NCBI GenBank assembly: GCA_965237415.1
Contig: CBDEFM010000002.1
Location: forward strand, 3,520,001-3,584,000
Reading direction: 5' to 3'
From: Alphaproteobacteria bacterium
GTDB lineage: Bacteria > Pseudomonadota > Alphaproteobacteria > UBA828
Length of the DNA: 64,000 bases
Under the pieces are notes generated by a model. That model worked only from the letters and a program-made list of their open reading frames with translations. It ran no database searches and was not told where the DNA came from. The position numbers and the translations under genes were made by a program. This document shows positions 2,971 to 64,000 of this stretch, piece by piece; positions within the stretch are counted from its first letter, which is position 1; every line of letters begins with the position of its first letter.

Positions 2971-4121
2971 GAACGCCTGCGCCCAACCCTCCCATTCTCC
3001 TCGCAGCAGGCGGAACTGGCGGCCACGTGTTTCCGGCGGAGGCCCTTGCGGCGGAGCTGGAAGCACGTGGCCGTCGTCTTGTTCTCATGACGGATCGGAG
3101 GGGCGTCGCATTCGGCGACGTTCTGGGGCGCATCGAAAGACACGCCATCGCCAGCCGGAGCCCGAGCGTACGCGGGCCGTTGGCGCGCGGCCTCGCCGTG
3201 CTCGGGCTCGTGCGTGCGGTCATACAGGCCGCGTGCGTGCTGCGCCGGATTCGCCCGGCGGCGGCCGTGGGATTCGGCGGCTATCCGTCGGTGCCGCCGC
3301 TGGTGGCGAGCGGGCGGCTCGGCATCCCGAGCGTGCTGCACGAGCAGAATGCGGTGCTCGGGCGCGCCAACCGGATGCTCGCCCGCCGCGCGGCGGCGAT
3401 CGCCACGTCGTTTCCAGAGACCGAGCGGATTCCCCGCAACCGTGCGGGCCTCGTCACGCATGTGGGAAACCCCGTGCGCGCCGCCATCGCGGCGTTGCGC
3501 GGCACTCAGTACGACCCGCCCGCACCGGACGGGCCGTTCCGCCTGCTGGTGACCGGCGGCAGCCAGGGTGCGCGGGTTTTCGCCGAAATCGTACCGGCGG
3601 CGGTGGCGGCGCTGCCGCAGTCTCTCCGGCGGCGGATCGAGGTGAGCCAGCAATGCCGCCCGGAGGACCTGGCTGGAGTCGAGCGCAGCTACGGCGAGGC
3701 GGGGGTGGAGGCGCGGCTCGCGCGCTTCTTCGAGGACATGCCGGCGCGCCTCGGCGAGGCGCACCTCGTGATCTGCCGCGCAGGCGCGTCGACCATCGCC
3801 GAGCTCGCCGCAGCGGGACGGCCGGCGATCCTGGTGCCGCTGCCGATCGCCGCGGACGACCACCAGAGCGCGAACGGGCGGGCCATGGTGGCAGCCGGTG
3901 CGGCCATCATGATCGCGCAGCCATCGTTCACGTCGGCGCGGCTCGCTCAGGAGCTCGAGACGCTCATGGCAGAGCCCGCCGAGCTGACCCGGCGCGCGGC
4001 CTCGGCACAGAGCTTCGCCCGGCCCGATGCGGCACACGCACTGGCCGACCTCGTCGAGGGCCTGATCGGCGGCCCGGCCCAACAGGCGGCGTTGGCGGAA
4101 CGCGGCGGGGGCGCGGCATGA
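2967..4121 (+). CDS. murG: Undecaprenyl-PP-MurNAc-pentapeptide GlcNAc transferase
   Basis: [39 protein letters not shown]. Confidence 0.97.
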
Positions 4122-5563
4122 AGGCGATGCCCTTCACCATCGGCACGATCCACTTCGTCGGCATCGGCGGAATCGGCATGAGCGGCATTGCCGAGATCAT
4201 GCATAACCTCGGCTACCGGGTCCAAGGCAGCGACATCGCCGAGAGCGCGACCGTGCGTCGCCTGCGCGCGCTGGGCATTCCGATCTCCCGCGGCCACGGT
4301 GCCGAGACCATCGACGACGTGGCGGTGCTGGTCGTCTCGTCGGCCATCGCCGAAGACAACGTCGAGATCGTGGCCGCCGGCGAGCGCCACATCCCCGTGG
4401 TGCAACGGGCCGAGATGCTGGCCGAGCTGATGCGGCTCAAGTGGTCGGTGGCGGTTGCCGGCACCCACGGCAAGACGACCACGACCTCGATCATCGCAGC
4501 CATGCTCGACTGCGCCGGGATGGATCCGACGGTCATCAACGGTGGCATCATCAATGCCTACGGCACCAACGCACGCCTGGGCGCCGGCGATTGGATGGTC
4601 GTCGAGGCCGACGAGTCCGACGGCAGCTTTGTCAAGCTGCCGGCCATCGCCGCCGTCATCACCAATATCGACCGCGAGCACATGGAGTTTTACGGCGACT
4701 TCGACGCCGTGCGTTGGGCCTATCAGTCCTTTGTCGAGAACATCCCCTTCTACGGTGTCGCCGCGCTCTGCATCGACCACCCGGAGGTGCAGGCCCTGAT
4801 CGGGCGCATCGAGGACCGGCGCATCGTGACATACGGCTTGAGCCCCCAAGCCGAGGTGAGGGCGGTCAACATCGCTGGCGACCTGCTGGGCTCGACCTTC
4901 GATGTCGTCGTCTCCGGCTACGTCCACGAGCGGCACGGCACCATGGAGGGTGTGCGGCTCCCGATGCTGGGCGCGCACAACGTGCAGAACGCCCTCGCGG
5001 CGATCGCCGTCGGCCGCGAGATGGGCTTTCCCGAGGCCGTGATCCGCCGCTCGCTGGCGGAATTTGCAGGTGTCGAGCGCCGCTTCACCAAGGTCGGCGT
5101 CGTTGGCGGGGTCACGGTGATCGACGATTACGGACACCACCCGGTCGAGATCGCCGCCGTCCTCAGCGCCGCACGCAGCGCTTATCACCGGCGCATCGTC
5201 GCCGTCGTGCAGCCCCATCGCTACACGCGCCTGCGCGATCTCTTCGAGGAGTTCTGCAGCTGCTTCAACGACGCAGACACGGTCGTCGTCGCCGACGTTC
5301 ATCCTGCCGGCGAGCAGCCCATCGAAGGGATCGACCGCGAGGCGTTGGTCGAGGGCCTGTGGCGCCACGGCCACCGCCATGTGCTCCCGCTCGAGGAGCC
5401 CGAAGCCTTGCCGGCAATGATCGACACCCTGGTGGAGCCCGGCGACCTCGTCGTCTGCCTCGGCGCCGGCAGCATCACCCACTGGGCACGGGCGCTTCCC
5501 GCCGCCCTCGAAGGCCTCGGGGACGGCGCGAGGGCGGCAAGCCCGGCCGGGCAGTCGTCATGA
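4118..5563 (+). CDS. murC: UDP-MurNAc:L-Ala ligase
   Basis: ATG overlaps murG stop (ATGA); [45 protein letters not shown]. Confidence 0.97.
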
Positions 5564-6522: not shown

Positions 6523-7439
6523 GCGCCGCAGGCAAGCATGTCGCCGTGCTAAAGGGCGGCTGGTCCGCCGAGCGCGAGGTGTCGCTGGTGTCCGGTGACG
6601 CCGTGGAGCGTGCGCTTGCCGAGGGCGGCTATCGCGTGACTGGCATCGACGTAACCCGAGACCTGCCGGCAACCCTGGCCGAGGTCCGACCGGACGTTGT
6701 GTTCAATGCCCTGCACGGCTCCATCGGCGAGGACGGATGCGTCCAGGGGCTGCTCGAGGTCATGGGCCTGCCCTACTCCCATTCGGGCGTGCTCGCCTCT
6801 GCGCTGGCAATGGACAAGCCCGCGGCGAAGCAGCTCTTCGCCGATGCCGGGCTCGCCTGCCCCGAGGGCCGCGTGATGCGCCGCACCGAGATCGCCGCCG
6901 GCGCCGCCGGCGAGCCGCCCTACGTCATCAAGCCACTCGACCAGGGCTCCAGCGTGGGCGTCCAGCTCGTTTTCAGCGGCGACAACGCGGTGCTGCCCAA
7001 CGGCGATTGGCCCTTTGGCGATCAGGTGCTTGTCGAGCGCTACATCCCGGGGCGCGAGATCCAGGTAGCGGTGATGGGGGAGCGCGCGCTCGGCGCCATC
7101 GAGATCCGGCCGAAGGGGCGCTTCTACGACTACGAGGCCAAGTACACTGAGGGCCGCGCCGACCACCACATGCCAGCCCCGATCCATCCGGACGCCTATG
7201 CCGAAGCGCTGGAGATCGCGCTCAAAGCCCACCGGGCGCTCGGCTGCCGGGGCGTGAGCCGCGCCGATCTCCGCTACGACGACACGGCGGGCGAGCCGGG
7301 CCGCTTCTACTTGCTCGAAATCAATACCCAACCGGGCATGACGCCGCTCTCGCTCGTGCCCGAGATCGCCGCCGACGCGGGCATCAGCTTCGAGGAGCTC
7401 GTCCGCTGGCTCGTGGAGAACGCCGCATGCGACAGCTGA
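6519..7439 (+). CDS. ddl: D-Ala-D-Ala ligase
   Basis: GGWSAEREVSL, LHG-GEDG, GSSVG, YDYEAKY, EINTQPGMT. Confidence 0.97.
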   Translation: MSAAGKHVAVLKGGWSAEREVSLVSGDAVERALAEGGYRVTGIDVTRDLPATLAEVRPDVVFNALHGSIGEDGCVQGLLEVMGLPYSHSGVLASALAMDKPAAKQLFADAGLACPEGRVMRRTEIAAGAAGEPPYVIKPLDQGSSVGVQLVFSGDNAVLPNGDWPFGDQVLVERYIPGREIQVAVMGERALGAIEIRPKGRFYDYEAKYTEGRADHHMPAPIHPDAYAEALEIALKAHRALGCRGVSRADLRYDDTAGEPGRFYLLEINTQPGMTPLSLVPEIAADAGISFEELVRWLVENAACDS

Positions 7440-8272
7440 GCCTCTTCGGCACACGGAAGGAGGCCGCGCGGCCGGCGCCGCGCCCGGGCGTGTCCCGCCT
7501 TGCCTCGCGGCGCGTGCTCAAGTGGGCGGCCATTGCGCTGACGGGCGGCGGGATCGTTGCTGCGGCGATCTGGGTCGTCCAGCCCGGCACGCTCAAGGGC
7601 GTGGGCGACGGCATCAGAGCGGGCTTCGTTTCGGCGACGGCAGACGCGGGCATGACGGTGCAGCGCATCCACACCGAGGGCCAGAACCAATCGTCGCCCG
7701 ACGCGATCCACGCTGCCGTGAGTATCGATTTCGGTACGCCCATCTTCGACGTGGATCTAGCCGCCGCGCGCGACCGTATTCAGGCCATCGGCTGGGTCGA
7801 GAGCGTGACCGTCGAACGCCATCTGCCGTCCACGATCCATGTGCGCATTGTCGAGCGCACGCCGGTAGCGCTGTGGCAGCGCAATCAACGATTGGTCATG
7901 GTCGACCGCGCCGGCGCGGAAATCGCCGCCGAATCAGTCGCTCAGTTTGCCCATTTGCCGATCATCGTGGGCGACGGTGCGCTCGACCACATGCCAACCC
8001 TGCTCGATGCGATGGCGACCAACCCGGCGCTGTCGGGGCGTGTGCAGGCGGCCATCTGGATCGGCGGGCGGCGCTGGACGCTCCATTTCGACAACGGCCT
8101 TGAGGCCAAGCTCCCCGAGATCGAGATCGGAGAAGCCTGGGCGCGCCTCGTCAGGGAGATCGGCGACCACCGCCTCCTCGACGAGCCGATCGCGGTCGTC
8201 GACCTGCGCCTCCCCGACCGGACGATTTTCCGCGCCCGGCCGCCCGAGCTGCCCGCCGACGACCGCACATGA
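7427..8272 (+). CDS. ftsQ: Cell division protein FtsQ
   Basis: Short cytoplasmic tail, single TM, POTRA-like WVESVTVERHLP, C-terminal VDLRLPDR; between ddl and ftsA. Confidence 0.93.
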   Translation: MRQLSLFGTRKEAARPAPRPGVSRLASRRVLKWAAIALTGGGIVAAAIWVVQPGTLKGVGDGIRAGFVSATADAGMTVQRIHTEGQNQSSPDAIHAAVSIDFGTPIFDVDLAAARDRIQAIGWVESVTVERHLPSTIHVRIVERTPVALWQRNQRLVMVDRAGAEIAAESVAQFAHLPIIVGDGALDHMPTLLDAMATNPALSGRVQAAIWIGGRRWTLHFDNGLEAKLPEIEIGEAWARLVREIGDHRLLDEPIAVVDLRLPDRTIFRARPPELPADDRT

Positions 8273-14786: not shown

Positions 14787-15845
14787 TCAGGCCGCCTTCG
14801 AGCCCTGCGGCGCACCGTCGCCGAGGCGGTTGAAGACGGCGAGCGATTCCTCGATCAGCGCCCGCTCCAGCCCGCGCACAATGAAGACGACGCGGGATTG
14901 GCGGCTTTCGTCCGGCCAGGCGTCGAGGTGAATCGGTGGATGAATGATGTGTTGCACGCCGTTGATGACGACCGGCGTATCGGCGCCCTCGACATTAAGC
15001 AGCCCCTTGACCCGCAGGATGTGCTCGCCGTGGGTGTGTAGCAGCATGGTGAGCCAGATGCCGAAGACGGTCCAATCAATCGGCTCGTCATGGATCAGGC
15101 AGAAGGCGTGGATGCTGGCGTCGTGCCGGTTGACGTCGTGGCCATGCCCTGTATGCGCATGGGATGCAGCCGCCTCCGCCTCGATCCAGCGCAGCACCTC
15201 CCCACCCTTGGCGGCGGCATCGTAGACGTCGGCGCGGAGAACGCGCTCCACGTCGACCGCGCCGTGCTGGCCGATCAGGAACTCGGCGGAGGGGTTGATC
15301 TGCTCCAGGCGATGTCTCAGCGCTTCCGCCGCCTCCGGCTCCGCGATATCGGTCTTGGTCAGCACGATGCGGTCCGCCACCGCCGCCTGCTTGCGCGGTT
15401 CCTCCTGGCGCTCAAGCTGGTCGAGACCGTTCACGGCATCGACCGTGGTGATGATCGTGCCGAGCCGATAGTGGTGGCGGATCGACACGTCGTTCATGAG
15501 CGTCGCCAGGATGGGCGCGGGATCGGCAAGGCCCGTGGTCTCGACGATCACGCGGCGATAGGGCGGCACGATGCCTCTGGCCCGCTTGTCGTGGACCTCC
15601 ATGATCGCCTGCTTGAGGTCGTCGCGGATCGTGCAGCAGAGACAGCCGCTTGAAAGCAGGACCGTGCTCTCGTCTACCGCTTCGACGAGCTGATGGTCGA
15701 TGCCGACCTCGCCGAACTCGTTGATGAGGACTGCCGCATCGCCGAGCGCGGGGTGCTTCAGCAGGCGGTTGAGCAGCGTCGTCTTGCCGCTGCCCAGGAA
15801 ACCCGTCAGCACGATGATCGGCGTCAGCTCACTATAGGCGCTCAG
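14787..15845 (-). CDS. COG0523/CobW-family G3E GTPase metallochaperone (start uncertain: CTG 15845 or GTG 15914)
   Basis: [28 protein letters not shown], His-rich linker, LRVKG, VQH. Confidence 0.92.
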
Positions 15846-15929
15846 CGCAATGACTCCTGCATCGCATTCGCTCCGGGGCCTGGGCGACAGGCGGGCGTTG
15901 GGGCAGGTTGGCACCTACCTCGGAGGCGT

Positions 15930-16823
15930 TCAGGCCGCATCCTCGGCCGCAATGCTGCCCTTGCGTCGATGGTGCTTCGCCTCCTCGGCAACCGCCGATG
16001 CATCCGCGTCGTAGACGAGCCGGTCAGCGCCCGCGAGCGTGATGAAGCGCTTGCCGCGCGCGCGCCCGATCAGCGTAAGCCCGGCCTGACGGGCGAGCTC
16101 GACACCCCAGGCGGTAAAGCCCGAGCGCGAGATCAGGATCGGTATGCCCATCGTCACGGTCTTGATCACCATCTCGCTAGTGAGCCGCCCGGTGGTGTAC
16201 ATGATCTTGCCGGAGGCACCGATGCCGTGGCGGAACATGTAGCCCGCAATCTTGTCGATGGCGTTGTGCCGCCCGACATCCTCCATGTAGACGAGGGGCC
16301 GCGCCTCCTCGCACAGCACGCAGCCGTGGATTGCGCCGGCCGCGAGGTAGAGGCTCGGCTGCATGTTGATCGCCCGGCTCAGTGCATAGAGCGACGAGGT
16401 CTTGAGGCGGGCCTCCGGGTCCAGCACCGTCGCCTCGAAGCGCTCCATCAGGTCGCCGAACACGGTGCCCTGGGCGCAGCCGGAGGTGAGGGTCTTCTTG
16501 CGGAGCGTCGCCTCGTAATCGGTCGCGCGCCTGGTGCGGACGACGACCGTCTCGATGTCCTCGTCGTAGTCGACGGCCGTCACCTCGTCGTCCTGGCGCA
16601 GCATGTTCTGGTTGAGCAGGTAGCCGAGCGCCAGGTAGTCCGGGTAGTCGCGGATCGTCATCACCGTGACGATCTCCTGCGAATTGAGGAAGAGCGTCAG
16701 CGGGCGTTCCTCGACGACGCGAGCCTCGATCGCCGCGCCATCCTGATCCACGCCGCCCAAGAGGCGGGTGAGGCGCCCATCCTCTGGGTCCGGCTTGACG
16801 ATGAATCGACGCTCATTGTCCAT
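15930..16823 (-). CDS. fdhD: Formate dehydrogenase accessory sulfurtransferase
   Basis: [41 protein letters not shown]. Confidence 0.93.
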
Positions 16824-16949
16824 GACGCGCAGGGTGCCACGCTCTCGCACCGGGTTCCAGAACTCCTCGATTGCCATTCGCGGCAGTTGGCTCCCGTTCC
16901 CGACGGCGCTCTGCGATACTATCGAAGGAAGCGCTGGAGTCGCCGACTC

Positions 16950-18386
16950 ATGACACGCAAGACATCCCCGGCCGTGCCGCCGGCGCCCGAGGCGACCGCG
17001 GGCAACGCGCCCAACCGCATGTGGGGCAGCCGCTTCGAGGTGTCGCCCGACGAGGTGATGGAGGCGATCAACGCCTCCATCGACTTCGACCGGAGGCTCT
17101 ACGCCGAGGATATCGCGGGCTCCGTCGCTCACGTCACCATGCTGGCGGCGCAAGGGATCGTGACGCAACAAGACGCGGACGCGATTACGGAAGGCTTGCA
17201 CCAGGTGCGGGATGAAATCGAGGCCGGAGGCTTCCCCTTCGACCGCGCGCTCGAAGACATCCACATGAATATCGAGGCTCGGCTTGCCGCGCTGATCGGC
17301 CCGGCCGCCGGCCGCCTCCACACCGCCCGCTCACGCAACGACCAGGTCGCGACCGATCTGCGTCTCTGGCTGCGGGCGCGTCTGGACCAGGCCGACGAGG
17401 CCTGCCGTGGGCTTCAGGCCGCACTTATCGACCGGGCCGAGGAGCACGTGGCCACCGTCATGCCGGGCTTCACTCACCTGCAGGTGGCGCAGCCGGTCTC
17501 CTTCGGCCACCACTTGCTGGCTTATGTCGAGATGATAGGTCGCGACCGGGGGCGGCTTGCCGATTGCCGCGGGCGCCTGAACGAGTCACCGCTCGGCGCC
17601 GCCGCGCTGGCCGGCACTTCGTATCCGATAAACCGAGCCATGACCGCAGAGCTCCTCGGCTTCGACCGGCCTTCGGCCAATTCCATCGACGCAGTCTCCG
17701 ACCGCGACTTCGTGGTGGAGGCGCTGGCGGCGGCGTCGCTGGTCGCCATGCATCTCTCGCGGCTCGCGGAGGAGCTCGTGCTCTGGTCGAGCGCGCAGTT
17801 CGGCTTCATCGCACTCTCCGACCGCTTTTCGACTGGCAGCTCCATCATGCCGCAGAAGCGAAACCCCGACGCCGCCGAGTTGGTGCGGGGCAAGACTGGG
17901 CGCATCGTCGGCGCGCTGATCGGCGTCCTCGTCGTGATGAAGGGCCTCGCGCTCACCTATTCGAAGGACATGCAGGAGGACAAAGAACCCCTCTTCGATG
18001 CCTTCGATTCGCTCGCGCTCTGTCTTGCAGCCGCGACCGGCATGGTCCGCGACATGACCGTGAAGGCGGACGCGATGGCTCGCGCCGCCGGGACCGGCCA
18101 CGCGACGGCAACCGACCTCGCCGACTGGTTGGTGCAGGAGGTGGGTGTTCCCTTCCGCGAAGCCCACGCGATCACCGGGCAAATCGTGAAGCTCGCCGAC
18201 GAGAAAGGCTGCGATCTCAAGGATCTGGCGCTCGCCGACCTGCAGGCCATCACGCCGCGGATCACCGCCGATGTGGTGGCGCTACTCGACCCCGCCCAAG
18301 CCATCGCACGCCGCACCAGCGAGGGCGGCACCGCGCCGAGCGAGGTGGCGAAGCAAGTTGTACGCGCCCGGCAGCGTTTTCTATAG
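16950..18386 (+). CDS. argH: Argininosuccinate lyase
   Basis: [43 protein letters not shown]. Confidence 0.97.
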
Positions 18387-27786: not shown

Positions 27787-27842
27787 GATGACACGCCCGC
27801 GGCCGAGACGGCCGTGAATTGTATGCACGGGGACGGGGAACG

Positions 27843-29942
27843 ATGGCGAGAATCGGCGTCGATGTCGGGGGGACGTTCACCGATCTCATCCTGGAGACCG
27901 ACAGTGCCGCCAACGGCGGCGGCCGGGTCTTCGTGCACAAGGTGCCGAGTACGCCGGAAGACCAGTCGCGCGGAGTCATCCAAGGCGTCCTCGAGATCTG
28001 CGCCGAGGCAGGCATTGCGCCGGGCGACATCGAGCAAATCGTGCACGGCACGACCATCGCGACGAACACGGTGATCGAGTACTCCGGCGCCGAGGTCGGA
28101 ATGCTTACCACACGGGGCTTTCGCGACATCCTGCACATGGCGCGGCACAAGCGGCCCCATAACTTCTCCGTGCAGTTCGACGTCCCCTGGCAGTCGCGCC
28201 CGCTGGTCAAGCGCCGGAACCGCATCCCGATTACCGAGCGCATCCTGCCGCCTGAGGGCAACGTCGAGACCGCGCTCGACGAGGACGAGGTGCGCGCCGC
28301 CGCCGAGCTGCTCAAGTCGCGCGACGTGGATGCCATCATCGTCTGCTTCCTCTTCGCCTTTTTGAACGATGAGCACGAGCAGCGTGCCAAGGAGATCGTC
28401 AAGGAGGTGATTCCAGATGCCTACGTCAGCTGCTCCTCCGAGGTGGTTGACGTGATCCGGGAATACGAGCGCTTCTCGACGGCGGCGATGAACGCCTTCA
28501 TCGGGCCCCGCACGTCCTTCTATCTCAACAATCTGGACACGGCGCTGAAGGAGAATGGCGTCAACGCCCAGATTCGCGTCATGCAGTCCAACGGTGGCGT
28601 GACCACGCTTGCCGGCGCGGCCGAGCGCCCGGTGACGATCCTGATGTCCGGGCCCGCTGGCGGCGTCATCGGTGGCCAGTGGGCGGGGGACATGTCGGGC
28701 GTGCGCAACCTGATCACGGTCGATATCGGCGGCACGTCGGCGGACATCAGCGTGGTGCCGGACGGCGAGGTCCGCATCATGAACCCGCGGGACACGCAGG
28801 TCGGCGGCTACCCGGTTCTGGCGCCGATGATCGACCTCGCGACGATCGGCGCCGGCGGCGGGTCGATCGCCTATGTCGACGAAGGCGGTGCCTTTCGCGT
28901 GGGTCCCCGCTCCGCCGGTGCAGCGCCGGGGCCGGCCTGCTACGGCCACGGCGGCACCGAGCCGACCGTGACCGATGCCCAGGTGGTGCTCGGCCGGCTC
29001 GATCCGGAGCAGTTCCTCGGCGGCGGCCTGGAGCTCGATCCGGCGAAGTCGCGCAAGGCGCTCGAAGACAATCTCTGCGGCCCGCTCGACATGTCGCTCG
29101 AAGAGGCGGCGCTCGGCGTGATCCGGGTGATCAACTCCAACATGTCCCTCGCGATCCGCGCCAACTCGGTCGCCAAGGGCGTCGACCCGCGGGATTATGC
29201 TCTGGTCGCCTTCGGCGGCGCCGGGCCGCTGCACGGTGTGGCACTTGCGCGCTCGGTCTTCGCGCGCGAGGTGATCGTGCCGCCGGCACCGGGCATCAAT
29301 GCCGCGACCGGGCTGCTCGCCACCGACATGCGCTACGAGTTCACCCGCTCGGTGCTGTGCGTCCTTACCAAGGCGGGCCAGGACGAGATCAACAGCCTGA
29401 ACGCCGAGACCGAAACCCTTGTGCAACGCGCGCGCGACGCCCTGGCAGCGGATGGCGTGGCGCCCGAGAACCAGCGCGTCGTCAGGATCGCCGAGTGCCG
29501 CTATCAGGGGCAGGGCTTCGAGCTTCGTGGCACCATGCCGGACGGCCCGCTGGCGCTGGATAACCGGGCAGAGCTCCTGGCGAGCTTCCATGAGCGGCAC
29601 CGGCAGGATTACGGCCACGCCTTCGAGGACCAGGAGGTCGAGGTCATCACGCTTCGGGTCGTCGCTTCGGCCGGAATCGGCGCGCTCAGTTGGCCGGAAT
29701 TACCGGCCGGCAGCGGACGCAACCCGGAAGATGCGTTGCTCTATCGCCGCGCCACCACCTTCGACGACGGCCGTGCCTACGAAACGCCGCGCTTCGACCG
29801 AGGCAAGCTCAAGGCCGGGCAGCATATCGACGGCCCCGCCATCGTCATCCAGACCGATTCGACCACGATCGTCCCGCCCGGCTACGAGGCGACGGTCGCG
29901 CAATCGGGCAATCTACACGTCAGGGAGGTCGCCGATTCATGA
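27843..29942 (+). CDS. Hydantoinase/oxoprolinase subunit A (ATP-binding)
   Basis: GVDVGGTFTD, HGTT, REYER, SGPAGG, DIGGTS, GAGGGS, SAGAAPGP, FGGAGPLH. Confidence 0.93.
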   Translation: MARIGVDVGGTFTDLILETDSAANGGGRVFVHKVPSTPEDQSRGVIQGVLEICAEAGIAPGDIEQIVHGTTIATNTVIEYSGAEVGMLTTRGFRDILHMARHKRPHNFSVQFDVPWQSRPLVKRRNRIPITERILPPEGNVETALDEDEVRAAAELLKSRDVDAIIVCFLFAFLNDEHEQRAKEIVKEVIPDAYVSCSSEVVDVIREYERFSTAAMNAFIGPRTSFYLNNLDTALKENGVNAQIRVMQSNGGVTTLAGAAERPVTILMSGPAGGVIGGQWAGDMSGVRNLITVDIGGTSADISVVPDGEVRIMNPRDTQVGGYPVLAPMIDLATIGAGGGSIAYVDEGGAFRVGPRSAGAAPGPACYGHGGTEPTVTDAQVVLGRLDPEQFLGGGLELDPAKSRKALEDNLCGPLDMSLEEAALGVIRVINSNMSLAIRANSVAKGVDPRDYALVAFGGAGPLHGVALARSVFAREVIVPPAPGINAATGLLATDMRYEFTRSVLCVLTKAGQDEINSLNAETETLVQRARDALAADGVAPENQRVVRIAECRYQGQGFELRGTMPDGPLALDNRAELLASFHERHRQDYGHAFEDQEVEVITLRVVASAGIGALSWPELPAGSGRNPEDALLYRRATTFDDGRAYETPRFDRGKLKAGQHIDGPAIVIQTDSTTIVPPGYEATVAQSGNLHVREVADS

Positions 29943-59632: not shown

Positions 59633-60853
59633 TTACGCCTTCGCCTGCAATTCGCGAGGCCAGTTCGCGAGGGTTTCAGCGCCGGTTTCCGTGATGCGAA
59701 TGCTCTCGGTGATTTCGAGACCCCAGTCTTCGAACCAGAGCGCGGGCATGAAGTGGATGGTCATGTTCGGCTCAAGCACGGTGCGGTCTCCTGGGCGCAG
59801 GCTGATGGTGCGCTCGCCCCAGTCGGGCGGGTAGCTGAGCCCGACGGAGTAGCCGCATCGGCTCTCCTTCGTCAGGCCGTGCCGCGCGAGCGACTCCGAG
59901 AACGCGCGGTGGATGTCCTCGCACAGGTTCCCCGGCTTCGCCGCATCGAGGCCTGCCTCGATGGCTTCCAACAGCGCGCTTTCTGCGTTGCGCTCGCGAG
60001 CGGACGGTCGGCCCAGGAAAACCGTGCGGCAAAGCGGGCAGTGATAGCGCTTGTAGACGCCCGCAATTTCGAAGAACGTCGCCTCGCCCGCCCGCATCGG
60101 CTTGTCGTCCCACGTGAGGTGCGCCGCCGATGCATCGACGCCGGTGGGGAGCATCGGCACGATGGCGGGATAGTCGCCGCCGGCGCCGTCTACGCCGGTG
60201 ATGGCCGCGTGGTAGATCTCGGCGACCAGCTCGTTCTTGCGCATACCGGGCTCGACCACCTCCATGATGCGCGCGTGCATCTTCTCCACGATGCGCGCCG
60301 CGTTCTTCATGTAGGCGATCTCGGTCTCCGACTTCACGAGCCGTTGCCAGTTCACCAGCCCCGTCGCGTCGAGCAGTGTCGCATCGTGCAGATGCGTCTC
60401 CAGCGAGCGGTACGCGGCGGCGCTGAAGTAGTAGTTGTCCATCTCGACGCCGATCCGCGATCGGTCCCACCCACGCGCGGCGATGACTTCGCTCAAGTAG
60501 TCCATCGGGTGGCGTTCGGTGGACATCACGTAGTGATCCGCGTAGCCGACGATGTCGTCGTGCGCCATGAACACGGTGCGCTTCGCCCCGTTGGCGTCCA
60601 TGCCGCGCCCGAACCACACCGGATCGCCTTCGAGCGCGAGGAGCACGCACTGGTGCACGTAGAACGACCAACCGTCGTAGCCGGTCAGCCACGCCATGTT
60701 CGAGGGGTCGGAGACGACGAGCAGATCGAGCCCTCTCTCGTCCATCGCCCGGCGGGTCTTCGCGATCCGTGCCACGTATTCGTCGCGCGAGAAGGCGAGC
60801 TCGACCGGCGCGGGTGTCCCGATTTCGCTGCTTGTGGGCGACTTGCTGTTCAA
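59633..60853 (-). CDS. doeA: Ectoine hydrolase (M24 fold, DoeA/EutD)
   Basis: WLTGYDGWSFYVHQ, HPMD, EMDNYYF, LVNWQR, GGDYPAIVP, RYHCPL, SYPPDWGERT, LEITES; TTG start with GGAG upstream. Confidence 0.87.
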   Translation of the reverse strand: MNSKSPTSSEIGTPAPVELAFSRDEYVARIAKTRRAMDERGLDLLVVSDPSNMAWLTGYDGWSFYVHQCVLLALEGDPVWFGRGMDANGAKRTVFMAHDDIVGYADHYVMSTERHPMDYLSEVIAARGWDRSRIGVEMDNYYFSAAAYRSLETHLHDATLLDATGLVNWQRLVKSETEIAYMKNAARIVEKMHARIMEVVEPGMRKNELVAEIYHAAITGVDGAGGDYPAIVPMLPTGVDASAAHLTWDDKPMRAGEATFFEIAGVYKRYHCPLCRTVFLGRPSARERNAESALLEAIEAGLDAAKPGNLCEDIHRAFSESLARHGLTKESRCGYSVGLSYPPDWGERTISLRPGDRTVLEPNMTIHFMPALWFEDWGLEITESIRITETGAETLANWPRELQAKA

Positions 60854-60878
60854 GGCTGAAGGTCTCCGAAGAGGCAAA

Positions 60879-60907
60879 ATTATTCCTTCCAACGCTTGAA
60901 TTGTCTA
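60879..60907 (-). promoter_or_regulatory. Putative sigma70 promoter of doeA
   Basis: Minus strand TAGACA-17 nt-AATAAT, ending about 25 nt before TTG 60853. Confidence 0.55.
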
Positions 60908-61570: not shown

Positions 61571-62422
61571 ATGGCATCGCAGGGCACGAACGGCGGCACG
61601 GTCAAGGCACTCTGGCGCTATCCAGTCAAGTCCATGGCGGGCACCAAGCTCGACGCGGCGCAGGTCACCGAGGGCGGCATTCTGGGCGACCGGGCCTATG
61701 CCGTAATCGACCGCTCGAGCGGCCGGGTTGGGAGCGCCAAGACCCCGAAGAAGTGGGCCGAGCTGATGGCCCTCGCCGCCGATTTCGTCAGACCGCCGCA
61801 GGCCGGCGCGTCGCTCCCGCCCGTGCGCATCCTCTGGCCCGACGGCACGGCGGTCACCAGCGATGGCGGTGACCCCGATGCCCGCCTCTCCGAAACCCTG
61901 GGGCGGCCGGTCACGCTCACGACGGAGCGCCCGGAAGCGCCCAGCCTCGAACGCCTCGACCCGCTCGCCGAAGAAGAGACCATCGTCGATATCGGCGAGC
62001 TGATGATGGCAGGCCGGTTCTCCGACTATGCGGCGCTTCATCTCATAACCACGGCGACGATGGCGCGCCTCGCCGAGCTACGTCCTGAATCGGCGTTCAA
62101 TGCGCGCCGCTTCCGCCCCAACGTGACGATCGCCACACCAGAGGGAGAGCAAGGCTTCGTCGAGAACGACTGGGTCGGGCGCGAGCTCGCGATCGGCGAC
62201 GAGGTGCGGCTCCGTATCTCCGACCCGACGCCGCGTTGCTCCGTCCCGACCCTAGCGCAGCAGGATCTCGCGAAGGACCCGCAGGTTCTCCGCACCATCG
62301 TCGAGCACAACACGCTCCCTGTCCCCGTGCTCGACGGCGAATCGCTCCCGTGCGCGGGCGTCTACGCCTTCGTCATTCAGGGCGGCATGGTGAAGAGGGG
62401 CGACGCGGTACGGGTTGTTTAG
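61571..62422 (+). CDS. MOSC-domain protein (mARC/YcbX-like)
   Basis: WRYPVKSM, GDRAYA, RRFRPN, ENDW, PRC. Confidence 0.9.
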   Translation: MASQGTNGGTVKALWRYPVKSMAGTKLDAAQVTEGGILGDRAYAVIDRSSGRVGSAKTPKKWAELMALAADFVRPPQAGASLPPVRILWPDGTAVTSDGGDPDARLSETLGRPVTLTTERPEAPSLERLDPLAEEETIVDIGELMMAGRFSDYAALHLITTATMARLAELRPESAFNARRFRPNVTIATPEGEQGFVENDWVGRELAIGDEVRLRISDPTPRCSVPTLAQQDLAKDPQVLRTIVEHNTLPVPVLDGESLPCAGVYAFVIQGGMVKRGDAVRVV

Positions 62423-62444
62423 GTCGCAGGCGTTACCCGTCGCG

Positions 62445-62819
62445 TCAATCGGCGGGGGTGCGCCTCTTCAACTCTATCGGCTGGCCGTGGGGGGTGTGGA
62501 TGGTCGCCTCGGTCCAGTCATCCTTGAGGCCGGCAAGCTCCGCTTCCGAGCCGAGCCCCTTGTCGATTACGAGCTTTTCGAGCGCGCTCAGCCAATGTTC
62601 ATAATAGCGATCCCCGAGGTCGGGATCGCCTCTCTGCTTCGCCGCTGCTATCTCGGCCGAGAGGTAGTCGACCCACTCCGACCAGGTGAACTTTCCAGCC
62701 TCCGACAGCCGCACCGCCATGGCGAAAGCGGCCGCCTCCCACGGTTCCTTGAAGACCGGCCCGTCTTCGGCCTCCCAGGGGAGCTGCGGCAAATCGTCAG
62801 CCGATTGCGCGGCGCTCAT
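62445..62819 (-). CDS. Nitrile hydratase accessory/activator protein (P14K/NhlE-like)
   Basis: PVFKEPWEAAAFA, FTWSEW, YYEHWLSALE, TPHGQPI; ATGA overlap with the upstream gene. Confidence 0.88.
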   Translation of the reverse strand: MSAAQSADDLPQLPWEAEDGPVFKEPWEAAAFAMAVRLSEAGKFTWSEWVDYLSAEIAAAKQRGDPDLGDRYYEHWLSALEKLVIDKGLGSEAELAGLKDDWTEATIHTPHGQPIELKRRTPAD

Positions 62820-63169
62820 GCGCTATCGAGGTAATCGTCGAAGAGGTCGATGTACACGCTGGCGTTCGCGTTGGCGTGGTCGCCCCACAGCTCGCTCCCT
62901 TCGAAGCGCACGCTGTAGACATGCTGAGGGTCGCTGTGGGTGCCCGATGCGGCCGACGTATCCGGAAATGCGAAAACGCCATGATCGCGCGCAATCGTTC
63001 CGGTCTTGCCCCGGATGTAGCGCGGCAGCCGGGTATGGGACACCGGGTTCACGTTGAGGGCCGTGACCGTGTCCCCCACCTTGAACCTGGGTGCGACGTC
63101 CGCATCCATCCGGCATGATGCGCCTCCAGCGACCAGACCTGGAACCAAATCCGGTGTCAGAACTGGCAT
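62816..63169 (-). CDS. Nitrile hydratase beta subunit, C-terminal half as a separate gene (117 aa)
   Basis: PVLTP, RFKVGD, HTRLPRYIRGKTG, PQHVYSVRF, ELWG, DLFDDYL; own GGAGAG RBS and GTG/ATG overlapping the upstream TGA. Confidence 0.9.
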   Translation of the reverse strand: MPVLTPDLVPGLVAGGASCRMDADVAPRFKVGDTVTALNVNPVSHTRLPRYIRGKTGTIARDHGVFAFPDTSAASGTHSDPQHVYSVRFEGSELWGDHANANASVYIDLFDDYLDSA

Positions 63170-63483
63170 CACGACTCTCCCGCCTGGCGAAGGCTCGCGA
63201 TCTTCTCTTCGACTTCGGCCTCGGTCAGCACGCCGCGTTCCACCAGCAGGGTCTCGTAGGCGTGCAGCCAATGCTCGTAATACGAGGTATCCAGATACTC
63301 GGCCGGGCCCATCCGCTCGATGGCGTGGCGGAACATATCCACGTTGAAGTGGCCTTCGGCAAAGTTGGTGAAGAACATGCCGAAGACCCGGCCCTCCCAA
63401 GACTCATGGAACTGAGGCTCGTTTTCTTCGCGAACGATCGGGCCCATGCATTGCATGCCGCCCATGTCGTGAATGCCGTTCAT
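63169..63483 (-). CDS. Nitrile hydratase beta subunit, N-terminal half as a separate gene (104 aa)
   Basis: MNGIHDMGG, WEGRV, FRHAIERM, YYEHWL; AAGGAG RBS. Confidence 0.9.
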   Translation of the reverse strand: MNGIHDMGGMQCMGPIVREENEPQFHESWEGRVFGMFFTNFAEGHFNVDMFRHAIERMGPAEYLDTSYYEHWLHAYETLLVERGVLTEAEVEEKIASLRQAGES

Positions 63484-63506
63484 CGCTGCGCTCCTTTCCG
63501 CCCCGG

Positions 63507-64000
63507 CTAGCTGGCGGGCGCTTCGACCAGCGCCGTGCCGATCATCGAATCGCGGGTTACCAGTGCCGCCAGCTCGTCCTCGCTCAGGTCATCCGTGCCT
63601 GCCGGCCGTTGCGGCAGCACCAGATAGCGGAGCTCGGCATTGCTGTCCCACACCCGCACCTCGATGTCTTCGGACACCTCGACGCCGAATTCCTCGAGGA
63701 CGCCGCGCGGATCGATGACCGAGCGGGCCCGGAAGGGTGCGCTCTTGTACCAGATGGGCGGCAGCCCCAGCGTCGGCCACGGGTAGCAGGAACAGAGCGT
63801 GCAAGTGACCAGGTTGTGCACGTCGTCGGTGTTCTCGACGACGACCATGTCCTCGCCCTGCACGCCGCTGAACCCGAGCTCGGCGATCGCCTTCGTGCCG
63901 TCTTCGAGCAACCTCTGCTTGTAATCCGGGTGCGTCCACGCCCGCGCCACTACCTTGGCGCCGTTGCGCGGACCGACGCGGATCTCGTAGGTCTCCACGA
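63507..64000 (-). CDS. nthA: Nitrile hydratase alpha subunit, cobalt-type (5'-truncated by window edge)
   Basis: GAKVVARAW, metal motif CTLCSCYPW (Thr/Tyr is the Co-type signature), [25 protein letters not shown]. Confidence 0.94.

Follow-up and report, generated by a model that had tools for sequence, protein, structure and literature searches.

The DNA analysed here, which we call the window, is a 64,000-nt stretch of contig CBDEFM010000002.1 (GCA_965237415.1) from an Alphaproteobacteria bacterium. Four head-to-tail open reading frames (ORFs) on the minus strand lie at its end and correspond to the alpha subunit of a cobalt-type (Co-type) nitrile hydratase (NHase), the N-terminal and C-terminal halves of the beta subunit (betaN and betaC), and a P14K-type accessory protein, the activator. 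We consider it very probable that this four-gene, coupled alpha-betaN-betaC-activator operon encodes a Co-NHase in which two polypeptides naturally make up the beta subunit. The genes and the sites between them are as follows (aa, amino acids; SD, Shine-Dalgarno).

63507..>64000, minus strand: nthA, Co-type nitrile hydratase alpha; 163 aa visible; PF02979 263.8 bits, TIGR01323 274.7 bits
63484..63506, minus strand: alpha-betaN spacer of 23 nt; AAGGAG (63497-63492) lies 8 nt 5' of the betaN ATG
63169..63483, minus strand: betaN, N-terminal helical half of beta, 104 aa; PF21006 131.2 bits; Arg52, YYEHW
63167..63181, minus strand: coupling junction GGGAGAGTCGTGATG; SD core in the last betaN codons, betaN TGA, betaC ATG
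62816..63169, minus strand: betaC, C-terminal SH3-like half of beta, 117 aa; PF02211 117.7 bits; Arg47
62445..62819, minus strand: P14K-type accessory protein (activator), 124 aa; TIGR03889 95.6 bits (cut-off 46), PF21006 50.5 bits

The TIGR01323 score of alpha exceeds the cut-off of 249.85 bits despite truncation of the gene, and the Co-type metal site VCTLCSCY can be read in its translation. The single beta chain of about 220 aa that is a feature of the canonical family is absent from the window operon; betaN covers positions 1-100 of the 226-position TIGR03888 profile (129.6 bits), betaC covers positions 120-226 (126.6 bits), and the motifs FRHAIERM (containing Arg52), YYEHWL and HTRLPRY are all found in the two halves. 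The ATG of the activator overlaps the betaC stop (ATGA, 62819-62816), and the activator is itself related to betaN (36% identity over 80 aa, E 6e-12). The ORFs, coordinates, gene order, motifs and junction given in an original prediction for this DNA are correct in every detail that could be checked. Its suggestion that betaN ends in a helical tail agrees with the fold predicted from a 41-row alignment (mean predicted local distance difference test score, pLDDT, 77), which places a helix at residues 88-102 in a block with a pLDDT of about 90.

Conservation of the split and of its junction

Relatives of betaC were sought among proteins of 64-205 aa at E <= 0.001, which gave 1103 matches. The best 120 of these all have Met at the start of the domain and carry no betaN domain, at identities of 47-98%; the closest fused relative among longer proteins has 64% identity (157 bits). 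When the best 150 representatives of 50%-identity clusters were sorted, 81 were fused, 24 were clean split-type betaC and 45 were fragments or unclear, such that 24 of the 105 entries that could be classified are of the split form. A one-genome-per-species scan, in which a locus was called split if betaN and betaC lay in different stop-to-stop frames and fused if they formed one ORF, yielded 78 loci, 55 split and 23 fused, with the split seen down to 46% identity. The gene order at split loci is alpha-betaN-betaC, with alpha upstream in 54/55 and the activator downstream in 52/55; three of the loci that miss one of these genes (L002, L026 and L043) are at contig ends and a fourth (L042) is about 140 nt from one. 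The closest locus (L001) comes from an independently assembled alphaproteobacterial metagenome-assembled genome (MAG) chromosome, is collinear with the window at about 97% DNA identity, and has an identical junction. A search of the ESM Atlas returned only short betaC-only clusters, from Actinomycetota and Pseudomonadota, and gave no new lead. The window copy belongs to a widespread conserved clade and is not a local accident. The original prediction had raised an independent fission, and the view of it as private to one genome is contradicted by the relatives that share the split; these form a large and old clade spread over Alpha-, Beta- and some Gammaproteobacteria, and the cyanobacterial forms stand as a group of their own.

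At the junction, which reads GGGAGAG-TCG-TGA-TG on the minus strand, the A that ends the betaN TGA (63171-63169) also begins the betaC ATG (63169-63167), and a GGAG core is located at 63180-63177, 7 nt 5' of that ATG. The same one-nucleotide T(G/A)ATG overlap was scored by script in 42/55 split loci. The remaining junctions have a 2-nt gap (TGACGATG; 7/55), an ATGA overlap (1/55), a 1-nt gap (1/55), a 50-nt gap (3/55, all cyanobacterial) or, by script, a 356-nt gap (1/55, L041). This last gap is really a second betaN gene, the stop of which overlaps the betaC ATG, so that the overlap class rises to 43/55 after inspection. In 47/55 split loci, an SD core (GGAG, GAGG or AGGA) lies between -17 and -4 relative to the betaC start; positions drawn at random from the same operons have one in 410/2750 cases (15%). 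BetaN ends in variable residues (AGES, MEDA, KEAA), yet their codons retain GGAG. A promoter and terminator scan of 62300-64000 found no promoter-like site inside the operon and one terminator-like site, which is the level expected by chance (1 versus 0.8 expected). Termination-reinitiation coupling would be the simplest reading of this junction. The original prediction had preferred coupling to a random indel, and the retention of the SD core, the overlapping stop and the ATG across split loci speaks for that choice and suggests reinitiation as the mechanism.

The 55 split loci comprise 39 from Alphaproteobacteria, nine from Betaproteobacteria, two from Gammaproteobacteria, two from unclassified Pseudomonadota and three from Cyanobacteria, and 16 of the 23 fused loci are from gammaproteobacterial MAGs. 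On an alpha tree of 76 rows (L002, L040 and L045 were omitted for short or missing matches), the split/fused label requires three changes versus 18.6 in shuffles, with 0/500 shuffles as low; the split state is thus strongly clustered. A concatenated alpha+betaN+betaC tree was built by a quick IQ-TREE run from 83 rows, namely the window, 74 genome loci and eight plasmid loci, with L002, L026, L040 and L045 omitted. Here the label changes five times, at least three of which are forced by starred branches. The window falls within an all-split clade of 23 rows (Shimodaira-Hasegawa-like approximate likelihood-ratio test, SH-aLRT, 99), itself nested in a clade of 58 rows (SH-aLRT 96) that contains 55 split and three fused forms; a fused enzyme from Pantoea sp. 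At-9b nests among the split enzymes of Agrobacterium, Rhizobium and Burkholderia, and the cyanobacterial split group stands apart from the rest. Forcing the 60 split rows together costs 113 log-likelihood units, and a single origin of all split forms was rejected by the approximately unbiased (AU) test (p-AU 3.9e-05). Rejection of one split clade implies that the state has changed more than once. Judged from this tree, fission or re-fusion at the linker has occurred repeatedly, with the unrooted tree accommodating either direction at each change.

The ratio of nonsynonymous to synonymous substitution rates (dN/dS) was computed pairwise against the window for ungapped matches of at least 70% identity. 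The median values are listed here.

betaN: median dN/dS 0.135 (n=22)
betaC: median dN/dS 0.105 (n=14)
Activator: median dN/dS 0.076 (n=20)
Alpha: median dN/dS 0.195 (49/50 usable)

These values indicate that purifying selection acts on both beta halves. Residues R52, Y68, Y69, E70 and W72 of betaN are invariant in a 41-row alignment, as are T46, R47, P49, Y51 and R53 of betaC and CTLCSCY of alpha in 39-row alignments. Both arginines of the cysteine claw are present, as betaN R52 and as betaC R47, the latter being equivalent to residue 149 of the beta subunit in PDB entry 3QXE; for a related Ensifer enzyme, the available text of PMC12646544 describes stabilisation of the claw by betaArg52 and betaArg150.

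Plasmids carry the same arrangement. A tblastn search with betaC matched 146 plasmid records, and six of the eight that were examined are split. Plasmid copies of the operon are flanked on one side by an amidase gene and a transporter gene and on the other by the CbtB/CbtA cobalt uptake genes. The split clade is already in public records under uninformative names; in Burkholderia sp. PAMC 26561, Aminobacter sp. MSH1 (plasmid pUSP2) and Gloeocapsopsis dulcis, both halves are called 'SH3-like domain-containing protein'. The Burkholderia plasmid also has an IS3-family transposase between nthA and betaN (L080:1435-2609), which may disrupt its split-beta operon.

Some further arrangements were seen among the relatives. 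Of the best 120 longer betaC relatives, 10 begin with the betaC domain at residue 1, and in the two that were checked (P0121 and P0122) a C-terminal extension of about 110 aa without a Pfam match follows it; L035:7944-8645 (Panacagrimonas sp.) is grouped with these. In the Kiloniellaceae MAG locus with the second betaN gene (L041:6708-8351, JBHIDD010000048.1), the tandem copies lie at 7333-7644 and 7690-8001 between alpha and betaC, and both retain Arg52 and YYE(R/H)W. This duplication has the look expected if a betaN-like activator arose by duplication.

Relation to known enzymes and proposed assembly

The Co-NHase of Pseudomonas putida NRRL-18668 (the 3QXE family), which has a fused beta subunit of 219 aa, gives the best PDB match for either half. 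The alignment of betaN spans residues 1-93 of 3qxe_B (envelope to 103; 116.6 bits) and residue 2 of betaC aligns to residue 104, with the match continuing through residue 218 of 3qxe/3qyh_B (121.9 bits), such that the halves tile the 3QXE beta subunit as 1-103 and 104-218 with no residues lost at the cut. The P. putida enzyme also shares with the window operon the alpha-beta-activator order, a Co-type CTLCSC alpha subunit and a P14K activator. Its beta subunit is one chain, whereas that of the window is encoded by two genes with a coupled stop/start in the linker. The original prediction had likened the halves, by eye, to those of a canonical proteobacterial alpha-beta-activator Co-NHase, and both the tiling and the gene order uphold the likeness. 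On sequence grounds, the window enzyme belongs with the P. putida-type Co-NHases and would work like them.

Two other NHases are built from three subunits. ToyJKL, the toyocamycin enzyme, is a dedicated nucleoside-pathway enzyme that is not known to have a P14K-type activator. It resembles the window enzyme in its number of subunits, and its alpha subunit ToyJ, from Streptomyces rimosus, is described as sufficient alone for activity and active-site maturation, as far as the available text of PMC7329996 goes. The same text describes ScNHase from Streptomyces canus CGMCC 13662, whose beta subunit comes as two chains of 10.4 kDa (N-half) and 11.4 kDa (C-half) in the complex AnhD2E2A2, whose genes lie in the order betaN-betaC-alpha without an activator gene, and in which AnhD doubles as a swapping chaperone. 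The window operon shares with ScNHase the separate genes for the two halves and departs from it in having the order alpha-betaN-betaC and in keeping the activator. As far as these descriptions go, the putative independence of the window operon from ToyJKL and ScNHase rests on gene order and the retained activator. The six NHase gene organisations set out in the available text of a 2020 review do not include alpha-betaN-betaC-activator for a true NHase (PMC7193024). Within the open-access literature, the only split-beta enzymes of the NHase family found were ScNHase, ToyJKL and thiocyanate hydrolase (SCNase), and a description in a subscription journal is possible; the available text of the genome paper on Aminobacter sp. 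MSH1 makes no mention of nitrile hydratase. Ensifer NHases (CGMCC 7333, 6315 and DA6) were considered as three-subunit forms and dropped, since the papers describe alpha, beta and activator only. The view of the original prediction that the enzyme is uncharacterised holds as far as the open-access literature extends, in which no characterised member was found.

Modelling of the complex, which the original prediction had proposed, was carried out on the alpha fragment of the window together with betaN and betaC, using an alignment for every chain and betaC as the partner. The model scored 0.84 versus 0.00 for the best control, a mark reached by 116/157 solved complexes and 2/215 mismatched pairs; 76% or more of the contacts are shared between runs, and the pLDDT of the partner is 80 or higher. 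In the predicted complex the halves look like a normal beta subunit seated on alpha. Fused NHases have already been solved, and the pass may therefore be memory on the part of the model, showing likeness rather than binding.

We infer the enzymatic activity, the stoichiometry, the coupling mechanism and the substrate, and propose the following working of the operon. The cut in the beta subunit falls within the linker that joins its helical N-domain to its SH3-like C-domain. A ribosome ending betaN at the TGA sits on the betaC ATG, with GGAG within the last betaN codons, and the betaC-activator junction (ATGA) has a similar overlapping layout. The overlap would hold betaN and betaC at 1:1. The three chains would come together as in a canonical alpha-beta protomer, with (alpha-betaN-betaC)2 as the probable form, in which the oxidised Cys claw at the CTLCSC cobalt site of alpha would be gripped by betaN Arg52 and betaC Arg47 (betaArg149). 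Cobalt would be loaded by the P14K-type activator through self-subunit swapping, as in P. putida, and the mature enzyme would hydrate a nitrile to its amide.

Competing explanations

Several points weigh against a working NHase with a two-polypeptide beta subunit. The (alpha-betaN-betaC)2 assembly, self-subunit swapping and 1:1 coupling are carried over by analogy from the P. putida and ScNHase literature, and searches of the open-access literature gave no report of activity, expression or protein for any member. Neither half alone reaches the TIGR03888 cut-off of 152.2 bits, and it is the two together that span the profile. The 5' end of alpha is beyond the window, placing the N-terminal 40-60 aa or so, the start and the promoter outside; in L001, the full-length alpha ORF has no more than 223 aa. 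Neither an amidase gene nor a cobalt transporter gene lies beside the operon in the window or upstream of alpha in L001, and past alpha, where the original prediction had looked to such genes, L001 has a divergent short-chain dehydrogenase (SDR) instead. Finally, three of the six split plasmid records, from Agrobacterium vitis, A. tumefaciens AF1/95 and Rhizobium sp. NIBRBAC000502774, have no coding sequence (CDS) at the split gene and one skipped locus tag. The gene table omits pseudogenes, and hence these CDS-less records probably reflect a systematic pseudogene call for split nthB. In all three (L079, A. vitis; L082, Rhizobium sp.; L083, A. tumefaciens) both ORFs are intact and meet at a TGATG or TAATG junction.

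The CDS-less records would fit a frameshift introduced in sequencing or assembly of an ordinary fused nthB, or an indel that recently made such a gene a pseudogene, as would the adjacent frames of the halves and their exact tiling of a fused beta subunit. An error or decaying gene of this kind does not account for the recurrence of the split in 55/78 species-level loci and in 6/8 plasmid loci fetched, for a junction that keeps an ATG, an SD core and an overlapping stop, for a dN/dS of about 0.1 in both halves, or for the full-length split forms that make up all of the best 120 short betaC relatives; its probability is negligible and, for practical purposes, it is refuted. A programmed -1 ribosomal frameshift before the betaN stop could instead yield a fused beta subunit from the same DNA, and in most split loci the stop-to-start offsets do place betaC in the -1 frame relative to betaN. 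This relation is a trivial consequence of the TGATG overlap, however, and the features that are conserved are the ATG and the SD core. There is no conserved slippery heptamer, the bases before the stop differing by clade (for example GGGAGAGTCG, ATGGAGGACGCC and AAGGAGGCGGCG), and the spacing varies (overlaps of 1 and 4 nt and gaps of 1, 2 and 50 nt) in a way that is incompatible with one site. Lack of a heptamer and variable spacing together make frameshifting a very improbable source of the beta subunit.

The remaining alternatives concern what the proteins do. The enzyme could be an SCNase or have another divergent NHase-family function rather than being a nitrile hydratase; SCNase, a cobalt enzyme of the NHase family, likewise has its beta subunit in two chains plus an activator, according to the available text of PMC7193024. 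The alpha subunit, however, passes the NHase equivalog TIGR01323 and fails the SCNase gamma model TIGR03887 (168.8 bits versus a cut-off of 291.45). With 121.9 bits to the P. putida beta subunit, betaC is far nearer to NHase beta than to its distant relative in SCNase of Thiobacillus thioparus (PDB 2DD4), where the match to the alpha subunit, 2dd4_A, reaches only 30.5 bits, and the 24 PDB matches of betaN at E <= 0.001 are all NHase beta with no SCNase beta among them. Related plasmid split operons adjoin amidase and CbtA/CbtB genes, the usual nitrile-to-acid context. We regard such a divergent function as very improbable, and the thiocyanate substrate allowed for in the original prediction is not indicated. 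A second role for free betaN is easier to entertain but still unlikely, namely that it serves with alpha as a cobalt or self-subunit-swapping chaperone in the manner of AnhD. AnhD, the betaN-like subunit of ScNHase, forms AnhD2A and activates the apo-enzyme in the available account (PMC7329996); betaN and the activator are homologous, and L041 has its two tandem betaN genes. ScNHase is described there as lacking a dedicated activator, whereas one is kept in the window and in 52/55 split loci, and its retention leaves no gap for a betaN chaperone to fill. Going one step further, the split-beta operons might be a workshop of NHase maturation, in which free betaN forms alpha(betaN)2, as AnhD does in ScNHase, duplicates and gave, or still gives, rise to P14K activators. 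We consider this a speculative and unlikely extension. If true, the proteobacterial split clade would be a living intermediate between an enzyme subunit and a metallochaperone, and repeated fission or re-fusion at the linker would reflect selection on a dual role rather than neutral drift.

Chromosomal setting and wider meaning

The window is core chromosome with 67% GC, containing the dcw cluster, argH, lysA, nrdJ and a ribosomal protein operon through secY. A plasmid origin was considered and rejected on account of these surroundings and of a megablast search in which the operon had no match to plasmids. The genes downstream of the activator encode a MOSC-domain protein (convergent), a member of the GFA family and a DoeA-like ectoine hydrolase. 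The last of these (window 59633-60892, minus strand) matches the DoeA-type family TIGR02993 with 693.5 bits (cut-off 613) and is flanked by a class II aldolase gene and the GFA-family gene; among the nearby ORFs scanned there was no other ectoine-degradation family match. Elsewhere in the window, an ORF at 27819-29942 (plus strand) is of the hydantoinase/oxoprolinase family, with caprolactamase subunit alpha as its best match, far short of the cut-off (573 versus 1000 bits), and is a further candidate for amide or lactam metabolism. The murC and argH ORFs (3233-5563 and 15693-18386, both plus strand) have N-terminal extensions of 305 and 442 aa, respectively, without a Pfam match, which are most likely ORF over-extension in GC-rich DNA; that of murC covers the expected place of murG, in another frame.

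Split-beta NHases have been held to be rarities, known from ScNHase, ToyJKL and SCNase, but here the split accounts for 55/78 related genome loci, and its cultured carriers include Agrobacterium, Rhizobium, Burkholderia, Roseobacter, Aminobacter sp. MSH1 and cyanobacteria. With the halves annotated as 'SH3-like' or left unlisted, these enzymes escape nitrile-metabolism surveys based on counts of nthB. For enzyme engineering the clade is a natural experiment, indicating that the enzyme survives cutting of the beta linker and, apparently, its re-joining; for evolutionary study it offers a clear example of fission that recurs and is stabilised by translational coupling of stop and start. The split NHase beta subunit is a common, conserved arrangement shared by many bacteria; its annotation is poor and it has apparently gone unstudied.

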